Shown: positions 37,354 to 57,564 of the stretch, one piece after another
How positions within the stretch are numbered: position 1 is the stretch's first letter
How the letters are laid out: each line of letters begins with the position of its first letter
Assembly (NCBI GenBank): GCA_963760795.1
Contig: CAVXEP010000015.1
Location: forward strand, 106,239-170,238
DNA from: an uncultured delta proteobacterium
Lineage (GTDB): Bacteria; Desulfobacterota; Binatia; UBA9968
Reading direction: 5' to 3'
DNA length: 64,000 bases
Program-made: the position numbers and the translations under genes
Notes under the pieces: model-generated
Told to the model about the DNA's origin: nothing
Seen by the model: only the letters and a program-made list of their open reading frames with translations
Database searches by the model: none

Positions 37354-38221
37354 CTAAACTAGTTTCCAGCTGACAAAGCCCCACCCGGTGGCGACGAAGT
37401 CCGGCATGTAGGCGGTAAAGCTCGCCTTGGCATCGCCCACTGCGCCGATCACCACCATCCAGTTGAGAAACTCGGTATCGCCCGCCTGCAAGAGATCTTG
37501 CACTGAATAGTCAACCAAACTGCGGCCTTTCCCCTGGCGCATGACTTCGAGCAGCTTATGATCGAAACTCTCGTCGATCTCGCCGATGCGCGGCGAGCCG
37601 GGGAAATGGGACAAGCCGCCGGTGGCGAGGATCGCCACGCGCTCTTTTGCGCTATGCGCAACTTCACGGATCAGCTCGCCGACCTGATAACAGCGCCGCG
37701 GCGATGGCGCCGGGTCGACCCAGGTGTTCACGTAGATCGGTAAGATGGGAATCGTTGGTTGCGGCAGGAGAAAATGGAGCGGGACATTCTGCGTATGTTG
37801 CAACTCGACATGCTCGCCATAGGAAAAGTCGATGCCCTTCTCCATGCCGGCGCGGATGATCGCTTTGCCCAGTTCCTGGTGATTTTGATAATCGAACTTA
37901 TGCCGGGTGAACTGCCCCTGCACACGCTCGGCGATGGTGACAAAAAAAGTCGGGATATTGTTCCAAAAAAAATTGACGAATTGATCGTTGGCAACGACGA
38001 TCAGCACATCCGGTTTCGCCTGCTCCAGATCGGCGCGCAGCGTTGAAAATGCCAGCCTCCGCGTCTCGCCGCAGCTTCTTCTGCTGCTCCAGAGTCGGCC
38101 GGTTGGCCGAGGCCTGCGGCGCCATGCTGTAGTGCAAGTCCATAAAATCTTCCCACTCTTGACCGGGCTCGAGAAGAATATTCGGCGCATGGCTCGCCGC
38201 TAAGGCGGAAACTAGGGGCAT
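37354..38221 (-). CDS. LigB-like class III extradiol dioxygenase (frameshift near 38055)
   Basis: AASHAP, PDVLIVVANDQFVNFF, LQHTQNVPL, ATGGLSHFPG, GEIDESFD, GDTEFLNW. Confidence 0.9.
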
Positions 38222-38395
38222 AGCTCAAACTCCTCCGTGAAGTGAGCGAAATCCTATTCCCCGACCTGAGTAATTGCAACTATGGAATGGAACTATGGAA
38301 GGGCGCCATCGCGAAGAGACTATGAGCTGAGACCAGATGCGGGGCTGAGCGGTCGGTTCTTGCTCCGACTAATCGCCAGCCCGATGACCAATCGC

Positions 38396-38542
38396 TTAAA
38401 GCATCCGATAATTGCGCACGGACACCCAGACCGCAACAAAGACAACGACGAGCGAAACAATCGGATGATTCAAAACCCACGCGAGCGACGGTTCAAGAGC
38501 ATGGCGCGAAATCAATTCGAAGTACCGTGATAGAAGATCCAT
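38396..38542 (-). CDS. 48-aa single-TM membrane microprotein (not in the ORF track)
   Basis: AGAGG RBS; MDLLSRYFELISRHALEPSLAWVLNHPIVSLVVVFVAVWVSVRNYRML. Confidence 0.55.
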   Translation of the reverse strand: MDLLSRYFELISRHALEPSLAWVLNHPIVSLVVVFVAVWVSVRNYRML

Positions 38543-38961
38543 ATAATGCCTCTGTTTGGTTGGTTTCTGGTTATTCTACAGCAACCGGCGTTTCCGAATA
38601 CCACAAACTAGCCCGATGCGAATTCCTCAGGTCAATCATTGACGCCGCTGTCATCAATCCGCCAAGGGCACCGAGCTCAATTTTTTGAAGAGACTCCAGG
38701 TGTCGGCCCGGCGAGTGTCCGGCCATGAGAATCTGCCGTATCAACGACATTCACCTTGCTCACGGTTCCCGCATGGAAGTAATTTTTGGCAGTTTTAGAT
38801 CGTTAACGCAGGTTTCCCCCAGTTTTCCGTACAATCTTGGCTCGAAGTTGGACAATTCTGAAAGCTTTTCCGCCGACTTTCATTCCGTCATGGTCAGGGC
38901 AGCCTGCCGTAAATGACGAGATTCGTGAGGATTTAGTCCGTCCGATGACGTTTCGAGAGTC

Positions 38962-38977
38962 TGGCACCATGGTTGCT
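38962..38977 (+). promoter_or_regulatory. Sigma-54 (-24/-12) promoter
   Basis: TGGCAC-CATGG-TTGCT matches TGGCAC-N5-TTGCW; preceded by ~400 nt with no convincing gene (room for enhancer sites). Confidence 0.75.
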
Positions 38978-38988
38978 CTATCGTCGGT

Positions 38989-39165
38989 ATGTCAACGCAA
39001 ACGAAGTATCATCCGATGAAACTTTTACTCGTAACCATGTTTAGGAAAGTTCCCGTGCGCAAGACCAAGCAGCGTGCCACGTTCTGCAAACAATGCGGCA
39101 CAAGAATTTATTCGTTGACGTTTCTCAAGGCCCATCTCGAGTCCCATCAACGGAAGCCACACTAA
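38989..39165 (+). CDS. C2H2 zinc-finger microprotein (58 aa; alternative starts 39016 and 39037; not in the ORF track)
   Basis: MSTQTKYHPMKLLLVTMFRKVPVRKTKQRATFCKQCGTRIYSLTFLKAHLESHQRKPH contains C-x2-C-x3-I-x5-L-x2-H-x3-H. Confidence 0.7.
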   Translation: MSTQTKYHPMKLLLVTMFRKVPVRKTKQRATFCKQCGTRIYSLTFLKAHLESHQRKPH

Positions 39166-39185
39166 ACACAAAATGGAGACAAAAA

Positions 39186-39377
39186 ATGGATTTTTCAGTG
39201 ATCCCGTGGAAAATCTTTCTCGACGCCCTGCAGCACCAGCAACCGAGCACGTTGGAACTTTGGTTGCACCGCTGGCTGTTCACCAACGACGGCGTAATCA
39301 TGGCGACCACTGCCTGGCAAGAAACAGTGAGCCGAAGGAATAGTGGCACAGCCGATCATGAAGCTCTTCAAGCGTAA
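39186..39377 (+). CDS. 63-aa Trp-rich hypothetical microprotein
   Basis: GGAG RBS; MDFSVIPWKIFLDALQHQQPSTLELWLHRWLFTNDG...; 20 nt after the zinc-finger ORF. Confidence 0.55.
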   Translation: MDFSVIPWKIFLDALQHQQPSTLELWLHRWLFTNDGVIMATTAWQETVSRRNSGTADHEALQA

Positions 39378-39594
39378 TTCGATCGACGATAGGCGGCGGC
39401 CGGTTGCGGCGCGCTGTAACCATCGGCTCGCGGTGATCGTCGATCCCAGCGAACGGGAATTGACTGAACTCGAAACCATGCTCGCGCGATGTCCCAACTG
39501 CAGCCAATGGCATCCTGGCCAAGGACCGATCATGGCGGTGTTAACCAGCCGCCAAGACTCTAGCCAGAATAGTTCCAACCATTACATGCTGTGA
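39343..39594 (+). CDS. Small putative Zn-binding protein (C-x-H...C-x2-C)
   Basis: RCNHRL...RCPNCSQWH; overlaps the preceding ORF. Confidence 0.55.
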   Translation: MAQPIMKLFKRNSIDDRRRPVAARCNHRLAVIVDPSERELTELETMLARCPNCSQWHPGQGPIMAVLTSRQDSSQNSSNHYML

Positions 39595-39633
39595 CCAGAC
39601 TAGAGGAATCGCCAACCCTAGGAAAGTGTAACC

Positions 39634-39966
39634 ATGGAAGCTTTAAAGGTTGTCCTCCCCAGCGCCGAAAGCAAACCTTGCGTATGCGGCGCCACAATTT
39701 TTCGCACAGACGTAACTAGGCCCAGACACGAACCGATCTGGCTCTGCTCGCGTCACTGCGGCGCCTACGGGCTCACCTACGAAAGCGCGCTGCGGCGCAA
39801 AGTCAGACTGGATCTGTTGAGTTGGGGTAATCTGCGGCGCCATGCACAGAGGCTGATCGCTGCGGATGAGAAATCCGACGACGAGATTCCTCCGCAGTCC
39901 ATGACTCTGCGCACCGCACCGGTTTGCGCCACATTGGCAAGCGGTAATCGTTTTGAATCGTGGTGA
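39634..39966 (+). CDS. Small putative Zn-ribbon protein (C-x-C...C-x3-C)
   Basis: AGGA RBS; KPCVCGATI...IWLCSRHCGAYG. Confidence 0.6.
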   Translation: MEALKVVLPSAESKPCVCGATIFRTDVTRPRHEPIWLCSRHCGAYGLTYESALRRKVRLDLLSWGNLRRHAQRLIAADEKSDDEIPPQSMTLRTAPVCATLASGNRFESW

Positions 39967-39970
39967 AATA

Positions 39971-39991
39971 GCCGGAGGAAAGATCCTCGGC
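39971..39991 (+). terminator. Hairpin immediately after the microprotein cluster
   Basis: gccggagga-aaga-tcctcggc; no U-tract, so terminator function is uncertain. Confidence 0.35.
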
Positions 39992-40252
39992 CTGAGTCCG
40001 CCCGCTCGCAACATCAATATAAACCGGGAATTCGCGCCGCTCAGTGCCAACTTGATAAATTGATGAGCGCTGACGTCAGTTCAAGCTGAGATTTTTGGCG
40101 TTGGTAAAACCTGATATCAACTAGTGCGAACCGTTAGACTGATAAGAAATCCTGTGTTGTAAACATCCCTCACACTGCGCCGCGCGCGCTGGACTGTGCG
40201 GCGAAATTTGTTGAAAGCAAGAATTGATCGGTTCGGTTTGTTGGCGCTAGAT

Positions 40253-40669
40253 TCAGAAGGCGCTTGGCTGAAGATGAATATCCCCGCTCTGACCGCTGGC
40301 AATACGCAAAATCTTTTGACGCTCAGGACTAATGATGACCGCCGCTTCAGAAACGCCTCCACCACAAAAGCTGCTGATCGAAGTAGCCGCTACAACGTGC
40401 TCACCAAGGGGAACGAAAATCTCGACCTTTTCTGACGGTGCGAGATCGGCAACTGGCACGGCACCGACGAAAACCCGAATGGTGCAAGCCGAACCCATGA
40501 AACCACCGTCACGCTTGATAACGAGGCTCCCCGTGTACTGGGCTTCCGCTAACAAGTGCGGTGCCAGGATTCGCGAGGTCGGCACCTGGGATGCCTGATT
40601 AATGGCGATCGGGGAGGTGGCACACCCCATGAACAACAGAGTTACTAATACGGGAAAGGCACGCATCAT
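40253..40669 (-). CDS. Lipoprotein (DUF2846-like, a type often seen in prophages and islands)
   Basis: Lipobox LFMGC; VIKRDGGFMGSAC...VADLAPSEKVEIFVPLGEH. Confidence 0.7.
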   Translation of the reverse strand: MMRAFPVLVTLLFMGCATSPIAINQASQVPTSRILAPHLLAEAQYTGSLVIKRDGGFMGSACTIRVFVGAVPVADLAPSEKVEIFVPLGEHVVAATSISSFCGGGVSEAAVIISPERQKILRIASGQSGDIHLQPSAF

Positions 40670-41065
40670 GCGTCCTGATAATGTGACTGGTCTCGACGGC
40701 TTTACAGTATTCATTAGTTTTTTCTCCTCGGCATGTCGCAAGCCGCCACATGCACGGTAGATCACTCAGTTGTTAAAGGGTTTCGTGCAACGCAGGTTTA
40801 GCGTTTTAGCCGGCCGTGCTGACGATTCCGGCGCGAAGCGTTTAGTTCCACGATGCTACAGTTCATCACCCTCAAAAAAATACGACACAACCTTTTCTAT
40901 CTAATATGCCATCACACCACGAATCTATCATAGAACGATATCGGTAGAAGTTACGACAACCCTACAATTTTTTTTGCGTCTAACAAAGTAATGGCAATGT
41001 AGACGGCAAAAACGAACTTCCGCGACTAGAGCGGAAGACGTAACGGATTGGATTTTAAGAGGTAA

Positions 41066-41091
41066 AAATGTGGCCAGGGACGGAATCGAAC
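41066..41091. repeat. att site: duplicated 3' end of tRNA-Phe
   Basis: aaatgtggccagggacggaatcgaac is identical to 42931-42956; imperfect homology extends to ttaagaggt on the left and gacacgg on the right. Confidence 0.93.
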
Positions 41092-41146
41092 AATGGACAC
41101 GGGGCCTAAAATTAGTATCAAGATATGGATCGACTGAAAATAGCCG

Positions 41147-41180
41147 TTGCTAACTTATAGGCTGAAATGTACACTTCAGC
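41147..41180 (+). promoter_or_regulatory. Sigma-70 promoter overlapped by a TGTACA palindromic operator
   Basis: TTGCTA(41147)-N17-TACACT(41170); palindrome GCTGAA-a-TGTACA-c-TTCAGC at 41161-41180. Confidence 0.8.
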
Positions 41181-41200
41181 CATCAAGGGGGTCAACGGCT

Positions 41201-41455
41201 ATGGCACAGGTAAACACGGTAAATGCGCGGGCACAGTTTTCAGATATCATTAATCGGGCGGCTTTCGGCAAAGAGCGGGTCACGCTTACCCGCAGGGGCA
41301 AAGAGATCGTCGCCGTGGTGCCGATCGAGGATGTGAAGTTGCTGGAAGCATTGGAAGACAAAATCGATCTTGAAGAGGCGCGGGCTGCGCTGGCGGAGTC
41401 CAAGAAGAAAGGCACCGTGTCTTGGGACAAGATCAAGAAAGAGCTGGGCATATAG
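41201..41455 (+). CDS. Phd/YefM-family antitoxin
   Basis: VNTVNARAQFSDIINRAAFGKERVTLTRRGKEIVAVVPIED. Confidence 0.93.
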   Translation: MAQVNTVNARAQFSDIINRAAFGKERVTLTRRGKEIVAVVPIEDVKLLEALEDKIDLEEARAALAESKKKGTVSWDKIKKELGI

Positions 41456-41725
41456 TTGGCTTACCGGATTGAGTTTACACCCAAAGCCCAGCGCGATTTT
41501 AAGGCCCTCGATGGCTCGATACGCGGCCGGATTGCGCGGCGAATTGACTCGTTGGCGGAGAACCCGTTTCCATCGGGTATCAAGAAGCTTGAAGGCGAAG
41601 ATGAGCTTTACCGCTTGCGCGTGGGCGACTATCGGGTGCTCTATCAAGTGCAAGGCAAAGTGTTGTTGGTTTTGATTGTGGGCATGGGTCATAGACGAGA
41701 CATTTACCGGCGGATCGGGGGATAG
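41456..41725 (+). CDS. RelE/ParE-family toxin (RelE-like)
   Basis: YRIEFTPKAQRDFKAL, NPFPSGIKKLEG, YRLRVGDYRVLY, GHRRDIYR. Confidence 0.94.
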   Translation: MAYRIEFTPKAQRDFKALDGSIRGRIARRIDSLAENPFPSGIKKLEGEDELYRLRVGDYRVLYQVQGKVLLVLIVGMGHRRDIYRRIGG

Positions 41726-41727
41726 TC

Positions 41728-42997
41728 ATGGCAAAAGGCATCTACGAGCGCAAAGGTTTGAACGGCGACGTTACCTACTACATCCGTTACCAGGTCGACG
41801 GCACGGACATCAAAGAGCGCGTCGGCCGGAAGTCGCGGGGGTTCACTCGCGAGATGGCTAAGGATGCTTTGAGAGCGCGGCTCGGTGAGATCACCCAAGG
41901 TCGGTTCAATCTGGAGAAAACCCGTAAGCCTATCCCATTCTCAAAACTGGCGGAACGTTACCGCGAATACGGCGCCAGCACCAAGCGCGCATGGGACGAC
42001 GAAAAGCATATTACCGAACGGTTCGCGGACCTATTCGGGGAGACACCGTTGGCGTTGATCACAACTTGGCAGATCGAGAAGTGGAAGGGTGAGCGCGGCA
42101 AGGAGATCAAGCCGGGATCGGTGAACCGCCAGCTAACCGTCATCAAGCATATGTTCAAAATGGCCATCGAATGGGGCATGACGTTGACCAATCCGGCGAG
42201 CGCTGTGAAACGCTTACCTGTGAACGATCAAAGAACCCGTTTCTTAACCGGCGATGAAATCCAGGCAATTCTCAAAACTTGTGAAAGTCAGATCACTTCG
42301 CCGTGGTTGCTCCCCTCGTGACGCTGGCGCTCAATACCGGCATGCACCAGGGCGAGCTTTTGAATCTGAAATGGGAAGCTGTGAATCTCGCGCAGGGACT
42401 GATAACCGTGCGGCAATCGAAAACCCTTCGGCTAAAAACCATCGCAATCAATGCGCCGGCCAAAGATGCGCTAGATTGGCTTGGTGAAAACCGGTATGGA
42501 GAATATCTCTTCATGTGGCCGTGGGGCGATAAGATCGGCAAGGTCACTGTTTACGATGCTTTCAAAAAGCCTGTAGCGCGGCAGAGATCACCGATTTTCG
42601 CTTTCACGATCTGCGCCATACCTTTGCGTCTAATCTAGTCATGGCAGGCGTGGATTTGGTCACTGTGAAGGAACTCATGGGCCATGTCGGCATCGCTATG
42701 ACCGTGCGTTACTCTCACCTGGTGCCAGAGCACAAAGCGCAGGCCGTGACCAAATTGAGCGAACGGTTCGACGGATTCAAAACTGAATCGGCGAATCAAA
42801 GCGCAATCGTTTCACCGGAACTGAAAGAGGCGATCAATGCAGTTTTGCCGCTGAACTTGGAACAAGACCGGAACGTTTTCTTAATGCGGATGGGACGTGG
42901 ATTGAAAATCGTTAGTGATGTTAAGAGGTTAAATGTGGCCAGGGACGGAATCGAACCGCCGACACGGAGATTTTCAGTCTCCTGCTCTACCGACTGA
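41728..42997 (+). CDS. Tyrosine recombinase/integrase (2 frameshifts; first catalytic Arg reads His)
   Basis: Arm-binding-like N-terminus, SVNRQL, RTRFLT, LALNTGMHQGELL, FHDLRHTFAS, ELMGH..MTVRYSH; the last frame stays open into the tRNA antisense strand. Confidence 0.88.
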
Positions 42998-56214: not shown

Positions 56215-57564
56215 TTACTTGATGCCGAGAGTCTTGATCATGCGCAGAAAATATTTTTCGTGCAGTCCCAGGGCTTTAGCCGCGGCGGCGCGGTTGCCGT
56301 GCGATTGCGCCAACGCCTGGGCCACTAACGTCCGTCGCCTCGACTCCATCGCTTCGCGGTAGCTGAGGTTGTCATTCCGAGCAAGCGGCTCTACGGCAGC
56401 GATGCGGTTCGGCAGATCTTTGACTGGCAAGCGTCGGACCGTGGCCCAAAACCACGGCGCGCTCGATCACGTTGGCAAGTTCCCGGACATTTCCCGGCCA
56501 GTGATAGCCGGTCAGTCTTGCCAATGCGTCGTCCGCCAAAGCCGTAAACTGTTTCTTCGACTCCGCGGCAAAGCGTCGGAGGAAATGCTCCGCCAATGGG
56601 CCAATGTCCTCGGCTCTTTCACGCAGCGGCGGCAGCGTGATCGGGATGACATTGAGCCGATGGTAGAGATCTTCGCGGAAGCGGTTTTCTTTGACGGCGC
56701 TCTCGAGATCGCGGTTGGTCGCGGCGACGATTCTCACATCGACGCGGATCGGGTCGCGCCCGCCGACCCGGTCGAATTCCCGCTCCTGGAGAAAGCGCAA
56801 CAGCTTGGTCTGCAGCTCCGCCGACATATCGCCGATCTCGTCGAGGAAAACCGTGCCGCCGTTGGCCAGCTCCAGCTTGCCTTTCTTGAGCTGGTCGGCG
56901 CCGGTGAACGCGCCCTTCTCGTGGCCGAACAGTTCGCTTTCCAACAATTCTTTCGCCAAGCCGACGCAGTTGATCGCGACAAATGGCTGGCTTCTGCGCT
57001 CGCTCCAGTGGTGGATCGCCCGGGCGAATATTTCCTTGCCGGTGCCGCTTTCGCCCAACAGCAACACGGTGGCGCTGCTCGCCGCCGCCTTGCGCGCTGT
57101 ATCGACCGCTTCGGCCATTGGTTTACTCTCGCCGATGATCAACCGATGGCGATTATCGGTTTCTGCCGCGAGCAGTTCCCAGCTCCGTTTCAGCGCTTCG
57201 CTTTCCAGCGCCTTGCGCACGACGATCTCGAAGTGATTGGCGTCGAGCGGCTTGGTGATGAAGTCATAGGCGCCTTCTTTCATCGCCGCCACCGCGCTTT
57301 CGATGGAACCATGGGCAGTGATGACAACGACGGGAAACGCCGTCCCGGCGGTGCGCAAGTGGCGCAGCACGTCGATGCCGCCCATTTTGGGCATCTGCAA
57401 GTCCAACAACATCAAAGCCGGCTCATGCTTCTTGATCTCCGCCAGCGCCTCCTGGCCGTCGGCGGCCAAGGCGACCTCGCATCCCAACGCCCGCAAACGC
57501 ACCTGCAACAGCCGCCGCGCCGGCGCGTCGTCGTCGACGATCAGCACGCGCGCTCCGGTGTCAT
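56215..57564 (-). CDS. Sigma-54-dependent response regulator (NtrC family: REC-AAA-HTH; frameshifted)
   Basis: LIVDD, LLDLQMP, GESGTGKE, ESELFGHEKGAFTGA, FLDEIG, WPGNVREL, C-terminal GNRAAAAKALGL; GGAGG RBS before ATG 57564. Confidence 0.94.

Follow-up and report, generated by a model that had tools for sequence, protein, structure and literature searches.

The question whether a bacterium can encode a microprotein built on a single Cys2His2 (C2H2) zinc finger of eukaryotic spacing, and place it under sigma-54 control, is raised by a short locus within a 64-kb stretch of DNA (the window, G000:C15:106239-170238, G000 being the window's own genome, an 89%-complete assembly). Comparison with related genomes indicates that the locus is a sigma-54-dependent operon of four small plus-strand genes in an uncultured Binatia-type soil bacterium, headed by a gene for a 49-residue finger protein (family A). 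That its genes and promoter are as described below is very probable. The whole chain to which they are assigned, in which an activator-driven operon yields a zinc-folded 49-residue finger serving as a nucleic-acid-binding small regulator, has an even chance of being correct, and the nucleic-acid-binding step, considered by itself, is proposed tentatively and with some doubt.

A conserved gene for a single finger

Two sets of loci were compared, the first comprising 24 loci from related genomes (one from genome G004), and the second comprising the window and 34 loci of public metagenome-assembled genome records, most of them titled Candidatus Binatia or uncultured delta proteobacterium. In 24/24 loci of the first set an open reading frame (ORF) is kept from the methionine corresponding to ATG 39016, the product having 49 residues in 22 loci and 50 and 61, respectively, in the other two, and in locus L004 a TAG stop stands between the counterpart of ATG 38989 and this conserved methionine. 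The gene is thus 39016-39165, beginning at one of the starts that the original prediction had offered as alternatives, and the 58-residue reading from 38989 is abandoned. The product (MKLLLVTMF...) has a net charge, counted from the sequence, of +11, and the ligands C24, C27, H40 and H44. Frame, length and ligands are kept in 24/24 and 35/35 loci at 43-92% identity, the C-x2-C-x12-H-x3-H arrangement being invariant, and 16 columns of the protein are invariant, many of them beyond the ligands. Pairwise Nei-Gojobori comparison of second-set loci, using only pairs with unsaturated dS > 0.2, gave a median ratio of nonsynonymous to synonymous substitution (dN/dS) of 0.069 for the finger gene (205/595 pairs usable), against medians of 1.42 and 1.77 for the finger region in the two other frames. 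All four proposed plus-strand ORFs are present and conserved in related genomes, and their median dN/dS values (0.069-0.291) show them to be under purifying selection.

When ORF1 was searched against 61 related genomes, 24 of them, counting the window's own, matched strongly (E <= 9e-11). Family A is confined to one family-level group (f1, 29/36 genomes at E <= 0.01; f2, 0/5; f3, 0/19), and in a phylum-wide sample of 401 genomes, with 14 candidates scored per genome, the single genome matched was the window's own. In a large protein collection the finger protein is represented by 164 clusters, without Pfam domains; of the 120 listed, most have a length of exactly 49 residues, and the clusters are named 'hypothetical protein', contrary to the expectation that gene callers would miss such a gene. 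A search for fused forms among longer proteins gave two matches, both of them mis-called N-terminal extensions through the promoter, which is weak evidence that fusions are absent. The NCBIfam, PHROGs and PADLOC libraries returned nothing below E 0.1 for ORF1-4, so that no defence-system or phage assignment follows, and an Rfam scan of 37500-41500 at E <= 1 found no RNA family. A phage origin was considered and dropped, viral contigs holding no relative of family A and one weak relative of the paralogous families described below.

The sigma-54 promoter

The sequence TGGCACCATGGTTGCT at 38962-38977 (plus strand) is the sole exact match to TGGCAC-N5-TTGCW in the window, where six matches with at most one mismatch occur against 2.3 expected (2/100 shuffles reach six), and its GG and GC dinucleotides lie 10 nt apart, as sigma-54 promoters require. 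This exact TGGCAC-N5-TTGCT element, on which the original prediction was founded, is kept in position among relatives: TGGCAY-N5-TTGC is present in 35/35 loci of the second set, nearly always with 54 nt from TGG to ATG, and TGGCAY-N5-TTGCTC stands in register in 23/24 loci of the first. On such comparative evidence the sigma-54 promoter is real, and transcription would start near 38986-38989. Between box and start most loci carry a leader of the form ...GGAACATCAA...AAGGAGC.....ATG, that is, with a Shine-Dalgarno sequence (GGAGG in relatives). Since this sequence is present in relatives and the box lies 54 nt from the ATG, the leader would be some 28-30 nt long, and translation would not be leaderless as had been envisaged.

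The machinery demanded by a promoter of this type, as was anticipated, is encoded in the same genome, which has one Sigma54_DBD match representing rpoN (E 1.5e-62) and 26 strong Sigma54_activat matches representing enhancer-binding proteins (EBPs; E <= 2.3e-64). Strict TGGCAY-N5-TTGCH boxes number 62 in the genome, where base composition would predict 18.8; they include boxes before ORFs that resemble, as read from their N-termini, PII, an ammonium transporter and a hibernation factor. Nineteen C-x2-C-x12-H-x3/4-H patterns were found in its six-frame translation, and the only two with a box within 250 nt are both finger genes. As a separate observation, 46 of the genome's boxes are followed by a Shine-Dalgarno sequence and an ORF, and 19 of them precede ORFs of at most 120 residues, several small hydrophobic or lipoprotein-like; small proteins may be a regular component of the sigma-54 regulon in this organism.

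Upstream activator sites of sigma-54 promoters are expected about 80-200 nt upstream. A triple direct repeat of approximately CAA-N3-TG with a 10-11 nt period (CGTACAATCTTG / GCTCGAAGTTG / GACAATTCTG, 38828-38860) lies some 130 nt before the -24 element. Across 34 aligned loci it alone is conserved in an upstream region that otherwise cannot be aligned. A weight matrix derived from 32 loci gives the loci scores of 28.8-47.7 bits; elsewhere in the genome the highest score is 19.0. The repeat is a candidate activator (enhancer) site, a role that its position alone suggests. A gene for a sigma-54 activator (AAA+) is found in the window at about 56639-57139 (minus strand; G000:C15:162877-163377), some 17 kb from the cluster, and has no linkage to the cluster in other genomes within 4-kb flanks.

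Paralogous families behind the same box

Two paralogous families, B and C, were found by the ligand pattern at 21 loci, made up of 20 weaker second or third genome matches and a copy on contig C1 of the window's genome; the pattern is accordingly kept in 21/21 loci, which were selected by it. Family B proteins are about 69 residues long, end in ...LRKLQ.TFSHMRDIA and carry net charges of +2 to +13, and those of family C are 66-78 residues long, end in ...LKKLQYAMNRMR and carry net charges of -5 to 0. A sigma-54-type box is present in all 21 loci (20 strict, one a TGGTAT variant), the first Cys codon following at 66-165 nt (110-165 nt in 20/21), with about 45-63 nt and a Shine-Dalgarno sequence between box and start. 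A metagenome scan with the B/C alignment gave 334 relatives, of which 80 were kept; these loci carry 63 strict boxes and 17 one-mismatch variants at the same position, and the 63 are drawn from a total of 66 strict motifs in all 380,892 nt on both strands. No upstream sequence besides the box is common to families A, B and C. Because all three families carry it, the tie between finger and sigma-54 is a property of the superfamily and not of this locus.

The window genome's family C paralogue, at G000:C1:33594-33887 (locus L068, 1377-1674; TGGCATATTGATTGCT, 60 nt from TGG to start), encodes a 78-residue acidic finger microprotein and is flanked, as read from the sequence, by enoyl-CoA-hydratase-like and zinc-type alcohol dehydrogenase genes; no family B member was found in the 89%-complete assembly. 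By eye, TGTCAC / TGACA(A) words recur 100-160 nt before the box in the family B loci among L069-L088, and the family C loci among them show ACAAAAATG..TTGACAA words upstream, along with CAA-N3/4-TG repeats recalling those of family A. The B and C words are probably distinct activator sites, which would imply that more than one activator serves the superfamily.

That the ORFs and box are chance features of a non-coding spacer would fit the shortness of the ORFs and their want of family matches, yet the conserved frame, length and ligands, dN/dS values of 0.07-0.29 with off-frames above 1, hundreds of database relatives, and a box at fixed distance in three families that have no other upstream sequence in common make such a reading scarcely credible; as far as computation goes, the comparative data refute it.

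Character of the finger

The ligand pattern and its hydrophobic core positions are as the original prediction gave them. Expanded as C-x2-C-x3-I-x5-L-x2-H-x3-H, the pattern has invariant ligands in 23/23 aligned family A sequences, Ile at position 31 in at least 90% (Val in the rest) and an invariant L37, with Ile, Val or Met at the place of the canonical Phe in the C2H2 core. A profile of these 23 sequences, compared with 1.84 billion representatives, matched 38 proteins at E <= 0.001, among them long multi-finger proteins with 38, 10 and 6 matched stretches (P0121, 38 stretches, E 2.4e-46; P0129, 10 stretches, E 5.3e-14, these E-values summing many repeats); P0129, 891 residues long, reads as an ordinary tandem C2H2 array. 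In a profile search of the PDB the six best matches are eukaryotic C2H2 fingers (ZBTB17, TZAP, BCL6, HKR3; E 0.011-0.045), and by the molecule names listed neither a Ros nor an AFV1p06 entry occurs among the 32 matches at E <= 10. Neighbours in the ESM Atlas at 0.95-0.96 include clusters of 50-66-residue single C2H2 proteins (zf-C2H2, zf-C2H2_6, zf-met, zf-C2H2_jaz), some of them archaeal. Pfam matches concentrate in the C2H2 clan (zf-C2HE in 22/31 members, zf-C2H2 in 16/31), and ROS_MUCR gave none at E <= 1 for the finger protein; the kinship to zf-C2H2 anticipated earlier was thus recovered, but below the gathering cut-off.

The AlphaFold (AF2) model, built from a 31-row alignment, contains the beta-beta-alpha elements that had been expected, at middling confidence. 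It places two strands at residues 9-14 and 17-23, a third, short one at 30-31, and then a helix spanning 34-46, so that the helix bearing both His follows a beta hairpin bearing both Cys, while the N-terminal strand pair extends the finger. The top 50 rows of a Foldseek search with this model are mostly C2H2 fingers by description, with 22-38 columns superposed at 1-3 A. Comparisons by profile, language model and fold agree with the earlier assignment to the classical spacing and not to a Ros/MucR-like finger, and the family A finger is regarded as of the classical C2H2 type by its sequence, and likely so by its fold, without being a certified Pfam member.

Some of these results can also be read as pointing to a small basic RNA- or ribosome-associated stress protein, comparable to a sigma-54-driven hibernation factor, in place of a transcription regulator. 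A protein of 49 residues and net charge +11 is comparable in size and charge to zinc-bearing ribosomal proteins, the PDB profile search returned weak matches to eL37 (E 0.57) and S14 type Z (E 4.1), and a sigma-54 box precedes the ORF read as hibernation-factor-like in the same genome; zf-met and zf-C2H2_jaz, both represented among the ESM Atlas clusters, are RNA-binding finger families. The ribosomal matches are, however, far weaker than the C2H2 matches, the protein is limited to one family-level lineage, unlike a core translation factor, and its H-x3-H spacing is that of DNA fingers, as against the longer spacing of zf-met. A role of this kind is decidedly improbable.

Accessory genes of the cluster

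The notion of one fixed four-gene module is not supported. Promoter and finger gene are universal in the second locus set (35/35 for each), whereas ORF2, ORF3 and ORF4 are found in only 17, 19 and 14 of the 35 loci. ORF2, directly 3' of the finger gene where present, encodes a Trp-rich protein without Cys (63 residues here, 44-68 in relatives), whose conservation is limited to the first 40 residues (IPW..FLDAL..WLRRWLFTNEGV; median dN/dS 0.166, 79/136 pairs usable). ORF3 (median dN/dS 0.291, 116/153 pairs usable) has the consensus RCNHPLAV..DP...LE.ML..CPNCS.W.PGDGPIMAV, in which C-x-H...C-x2-C represents possible metal ligands; this motif, noted in the original prediction, is retained by reading of the sequences in 17/19 homologues, L045 and L052 being degenerate, and the best Pfam match (Zn_ribbon_CSL, E 0.21) assigns ORF3 to no family.

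The product of ORF4 (110 residues here, 88-104 in most relatives; median dN/dS 0.196, 88/91 pairs usable) has 26 invariant columns, and the Cys of the predicted CxC...Cx3C set (C16, C18, C38, C42) are invariant in 30/30 sequences. It is represented in the protein collection by 211 clusters named 'hypothetical protein', none with a Pfam domain, and 16/16 strong genome matches lie on the finger gene's contig, about 0.1-0.9 kb from the finger match. Its AF2 model (pLDDT 76.2, blocks within residues 11-80 at 82-95) consists of a small sheet with the Cys followed by a 34-residue basic helix, and gave no PDB fold match better than E 5.4 and only 0.79-0.80 to unnamed clusters in the ESM Atlas. None of ORF2-4 has a family in Pfam, NCBIfam, PHROGs or PADLOC, and the finger superfamily is likewise outside all four of these libraries. 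ORF2-4 are accessory, the finger gene often standing alone and ORF4 never being found away from it. In locus L024 a terminator-like hairpin with a T-run precedes the finger gene, the sequence upstream is a different one, and ORF4 comes directly after the gene, which may be a relocated copy under another promoter. The hairpin noted after ORF4 did not hold up as a terminator, having no U-run and being absent from a terminator scan at 39971-39991, while the fold of 39955-40030 is no more stable than expected (z -0.35, 60/200 shuffles as stable). The features of the locus are collected in Table 1.

Conserved four-ligand Cys/His sets in three of the four products invite the thought of a metal-handling module, whose three four-ligand proteins would buffer or deliver zinc under a ZraR-like activator, and there is a precedent in ZraP, a zinc-stress protein of E. 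coli under sigma-54 control via ZraSR. One metal per 49-110 residues would make a poor buffer, however, the 16 (finger) and 26 (ORF4) invariant columns include many non-ligand positions and argue for specific recognition, the finger gene often occurs without ORF3 and ORF4, and no metal transporter or sensor is linked in the 35 loci (as judged from shared gene clusters, with Pfam applied to the window's ORFs only). Metal handling is highly improbable as the function of the cluster.

Table 1. Features of the finger locus in the window (position 1 is the first nucleotide of the window)
Feature	Coordinates	Strand	Basis
Candidate upstream activator site, three direct repeats	38828..38860	+	Sole conserved upstream block
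Sigma-54 (-24/-12) promoter TGGCAC-N5-TTGCT	38962..38977	+	Exact consensus, fixed distance to ATG in relatives
Family A gene, 49-aa single C2H2 zinc-finger microprotein	39016..39165	+	Homology, dN/dS, profiles
ORF2, 63 aa	39186..39377	+	Homology, dN/dS
ORF3, 78 aa from ATG 39358 (83 aa from GTG 39343)	39358..39594	+	Homology, dN/dS
ORF4, 110 aa	39634..39966	+	Homology, invariant Cys, dN/dS, AF2
Imperfect hairpin 3' of ORF4, unconvincing as terminator	39971..39991	+	Fold energy versus shuffles

Proposed mechanism

In the mechanism favoured here, an EBP (an enhancer-binding ATPase) triggered by a signal would bind the triple repeat at 38828-38860 and open the -24/-12 promoter at 38962-38977, giving a transcript from near 38988 with a leader of about 28 nt, so that the 49-residue finger microprotein would be produced only when the activator is on. 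The protein would bind zinc and fold into an N-terminal beta hairpin with a basic arm, followed by one classical-type C2H2 finger. The arm (KKVPVRKTKQR, directly before the finger) and the net charge of +11 would confer binding to nucleic acid, most likely DNA, the single finger and its arm being used as in GAGA factor and AFV1p06, and the microprotein would thereby act as a small second-tier regulator on demand. ORF2-4 would supply lineage-specific accessory microproteins on the same transcript, two of them with putative four-ligand metal sites.

A number of observations weigh against this mechanism at one step or another. With regard to control, L024 (G007:C45, 1-300), the exception in the first locus set, lacks a box in the 149 nt of sequence to be had before its finger gene, and in the window (39001-39015) and its two closest relatives (L033 and L035) the Shine-Dalgarno sequence is degraded (AAGTAT, AAGTAC, GTAGTC) relative to AAGGAG, suggesting that this sub-lineage may translate the finger protein more weakly. 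A weight-matrix scan of the genome found no second copy of the triple repeat, and no EBP gene occurs within 4 kb in any of the 35 loci (as judged from gene clusters that the loci share, Pfam being applied to the window's ORFs only), so that neither regulon nor activator can be named. A contig assembled from an RNA library and covering 38829-39389 begins 133 nt upstream of the box, unlike what a sole start near 38988 would give, although DNA carry-over is possible. With regard to the finger, no Pfam cut-off is reached (zf-C2HE 18.0 against 30.1 bits, zf-C2H2 14.0 against 25.2 bits), the PDB E-values are marginal, a single PDB finger reaching only E 0.011, the AF2 model has a pLDDT of 71.5 with no residue at or above 90, and Foldseek gave no match at E <= 0.001. 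With regard to binding, canonical fingers read bases through helix positions -1, 2, 3 and 6 (Zif268 numbering), which in family A are Ser, Ser, Phe/Tyr and Ala/Val, a poor base-reading set; such a Ser/Ser/Phe/Ala face would suit a protein interface at least as well. Finally, family C is acidic to neutral, and nucleic-acid binding is hence not a property shared by all three families.

The last two points bear on a different proposal, namely that the finger microproteins bind protein, docking through the finger core on a common partner, such as an AAA+ activator or the sigma-54 holoenzyme, and exerting feedback whose outcome is set by family-specific tails; PspA exerts feedback control on PspF. 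All three families are tied to sigma-54 boxes, yet their charge spans +13 to -5, which agrees better with a protein target common to them than with DNA binding common to them; the proteins of families B and C terminate in a conserved amphipathic helix (...ELKKLQ..M.RMR), and the exposed helix positions of the finger (Ser, Leu, Ser, Phe/Tyr) are hydrophobic for a DNA-reading face. These hydrophobic residues may, on the other hand, simply pack on the N-terminal strands of the model, and no partner is encoded beside the finger gene in the 35 loci; protein binding, the principal rival, is considered unlikely, and a nucleic-acid-binding finger is retained as the working proposal.

Genomic surroundings and environmental occurrence

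Upstream of the cluster, gene order is kept in about 30/35 loci, with an LVIVD-repeat protein gene on the plus strand and genes for a 109-residue ORF, SDR, LigA and LigB on the minus strand, followed by the gene for a 48-residue membrane microprotein (minus strand, 38396-38542) and then the divergent intergenic region. The microprotein (MDLLSRYFELISRHALEPSLAWVLNHPIVSLVVVFVAVWVSVRNYRML) has one hydrophobic span and a conserved ...VRNYRML end, is kept in 30/35 loci and heads the minus-strand LigB-LigA-SDR gene row; a TGnTAGAAT-like extended -10 element can be read about 30-40 nt upstream of it on the minus strand, and no family was found for it in NCBIfam, PHROGs or PADLOC. Downstream of the cluster gene order varies across loci. 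In the window the segment 40253-42997, of lower G+C (0.50-0.53), contains a gene for a 170-residue lipoprotein (minus strand, phrog_890, E 4e-33), a Phd/YefM-ParE toxin-antitoxin pair (41147-41725) and integrase-fragment ORFs (41728-42321 and 42641-42997), and looks like a mobile-element remnant.

The window's DNA or that of close relatives was detected in 14 runs of nine studies, at 0.31-0.60 of sampled words; the labels of these runs are soil (12), mine drainage (one) and bog metagenome (one). Four metatranscriptome runs, each of a different study, yielded contigs 90-99% identical to the window (95-99% for 11/14 pieces), and within the locus these cover 38829-39389, 39161-39304, 39292-39487, 39632-39894 and 39946-40096. 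Being assembled, such contigs attest to the presence of the sequence in RNA libraries, and not to start, strand or true transcription, and gaps in their coverage carry no meaning.

Relation to known systems

According to the 2013 paper on AFV1p06 (PMC3541406), bacteria have practically no classical C2H2 fingers. With the TFIIIA/Zif268-type fingers of the zf-C2H2 clan, family A shares the C-x2-C-x3-hydrophobic-x5-L-x2-H-x3-H pattern with its 12-residue spacer, profile similarity to multi-finger proteins and eukaryotic fingers, and the predicted hairpin-plus-helix. It differs in being bacterial, in having a single finger within 49 residues, Ile for Phe, an extra N-terminal beta hairpin and Ser/Ser/Phe/Ala at the base-reading positions, in remaining below all Pfam cut-offs, and in its sigma-54 promoter. 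AFV1p06, a 59-residue protein of a crenarchaeal virus, binds zinc and DNA and belongs to a family of single-finger proteins that, like family A, have about 50-60 residues with one classical-type finger plus extensions; PMC3541406 reports no bacterial homologue. The extension of AFV1p06 is a C-terminal loop-helix-strand and Glu replaces its last His (PMC3541406), whereas family A has a strand-like N-terminal extension, keeps all four ligands and is encoded on the chromosome.

Ros/MucR proteins, whose structurally different domain is the accepted 'prokaryotic zinc finger', likewise have a bacterial Cys2His2 zinc site on a hairpin and helix, with basic flanks aiding DNA binding, but their spacer is of nine residues (PMC9779718), as opposed to 12 in the 49-residue family A protein. 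GAGA factor, in which one C2H2 finger follows a basic stretch that would give extra DNA contacts, provides the working model for how a single finger might be enough. PMC3541406 names it as a case of this kind. It is a eukaryotic domain in a large protein with different recognition residues, and is likened to family A by architecture only. The C(P)XCG zinc-finger micro-proteins of Haloferax volcanii, which function in stress adaptation (PMC6562870, PMC11241148), resemble family A as prokaryotic one-domain proteins of the zinc-binding type with fewer than 70 residues, zinc binding by family A being inferred, and differ as four-Cys zinc ribbons of an archaeon from a Cys2His2 protein of a bacterium under sigma-54 control. 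Full-text literature searches found no description of sigma-54-driven C2H2 microproteins, in line with the original remark that no described system was recognised. What is new is the combination, a bacterial superfamily of one-finger microproteins with obligate sigma-54 control, the fold and the promoter type being already known.

Significance

The locus introduces a well-populated bacterial family of one-finger proteins with eukaryotic spacing and hundreds of metagenome relatives. With three families standing behind sigma-54 promoters, these proteins could constitute a second layer of sigma-54 signalling within an uncultured, globally distributed soil lineage. The more specific proposal that the three form a home-grown superfamily of 12-spacer C2H2 fingers constituting a dedicated sigma-54 regulatory tier, for instance as anti-activators or co-factors docking on EBPs or holoenzyme, is distinctly unlikely to be right, and if true would define a class of regulator not yet known. 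Eukaryotic fingers have been hypothesised to descend from Ros-like bacterial proteins (PMC9779718), and a free-living bacterial lineage of the 'eukaryotic' finger, if borne out, would bear on this debate. Proteins of 49-80 residues are, moreover, easy to synthesise, and may be of interest for the origin and the minimal requirements of the zinc-finger fold.

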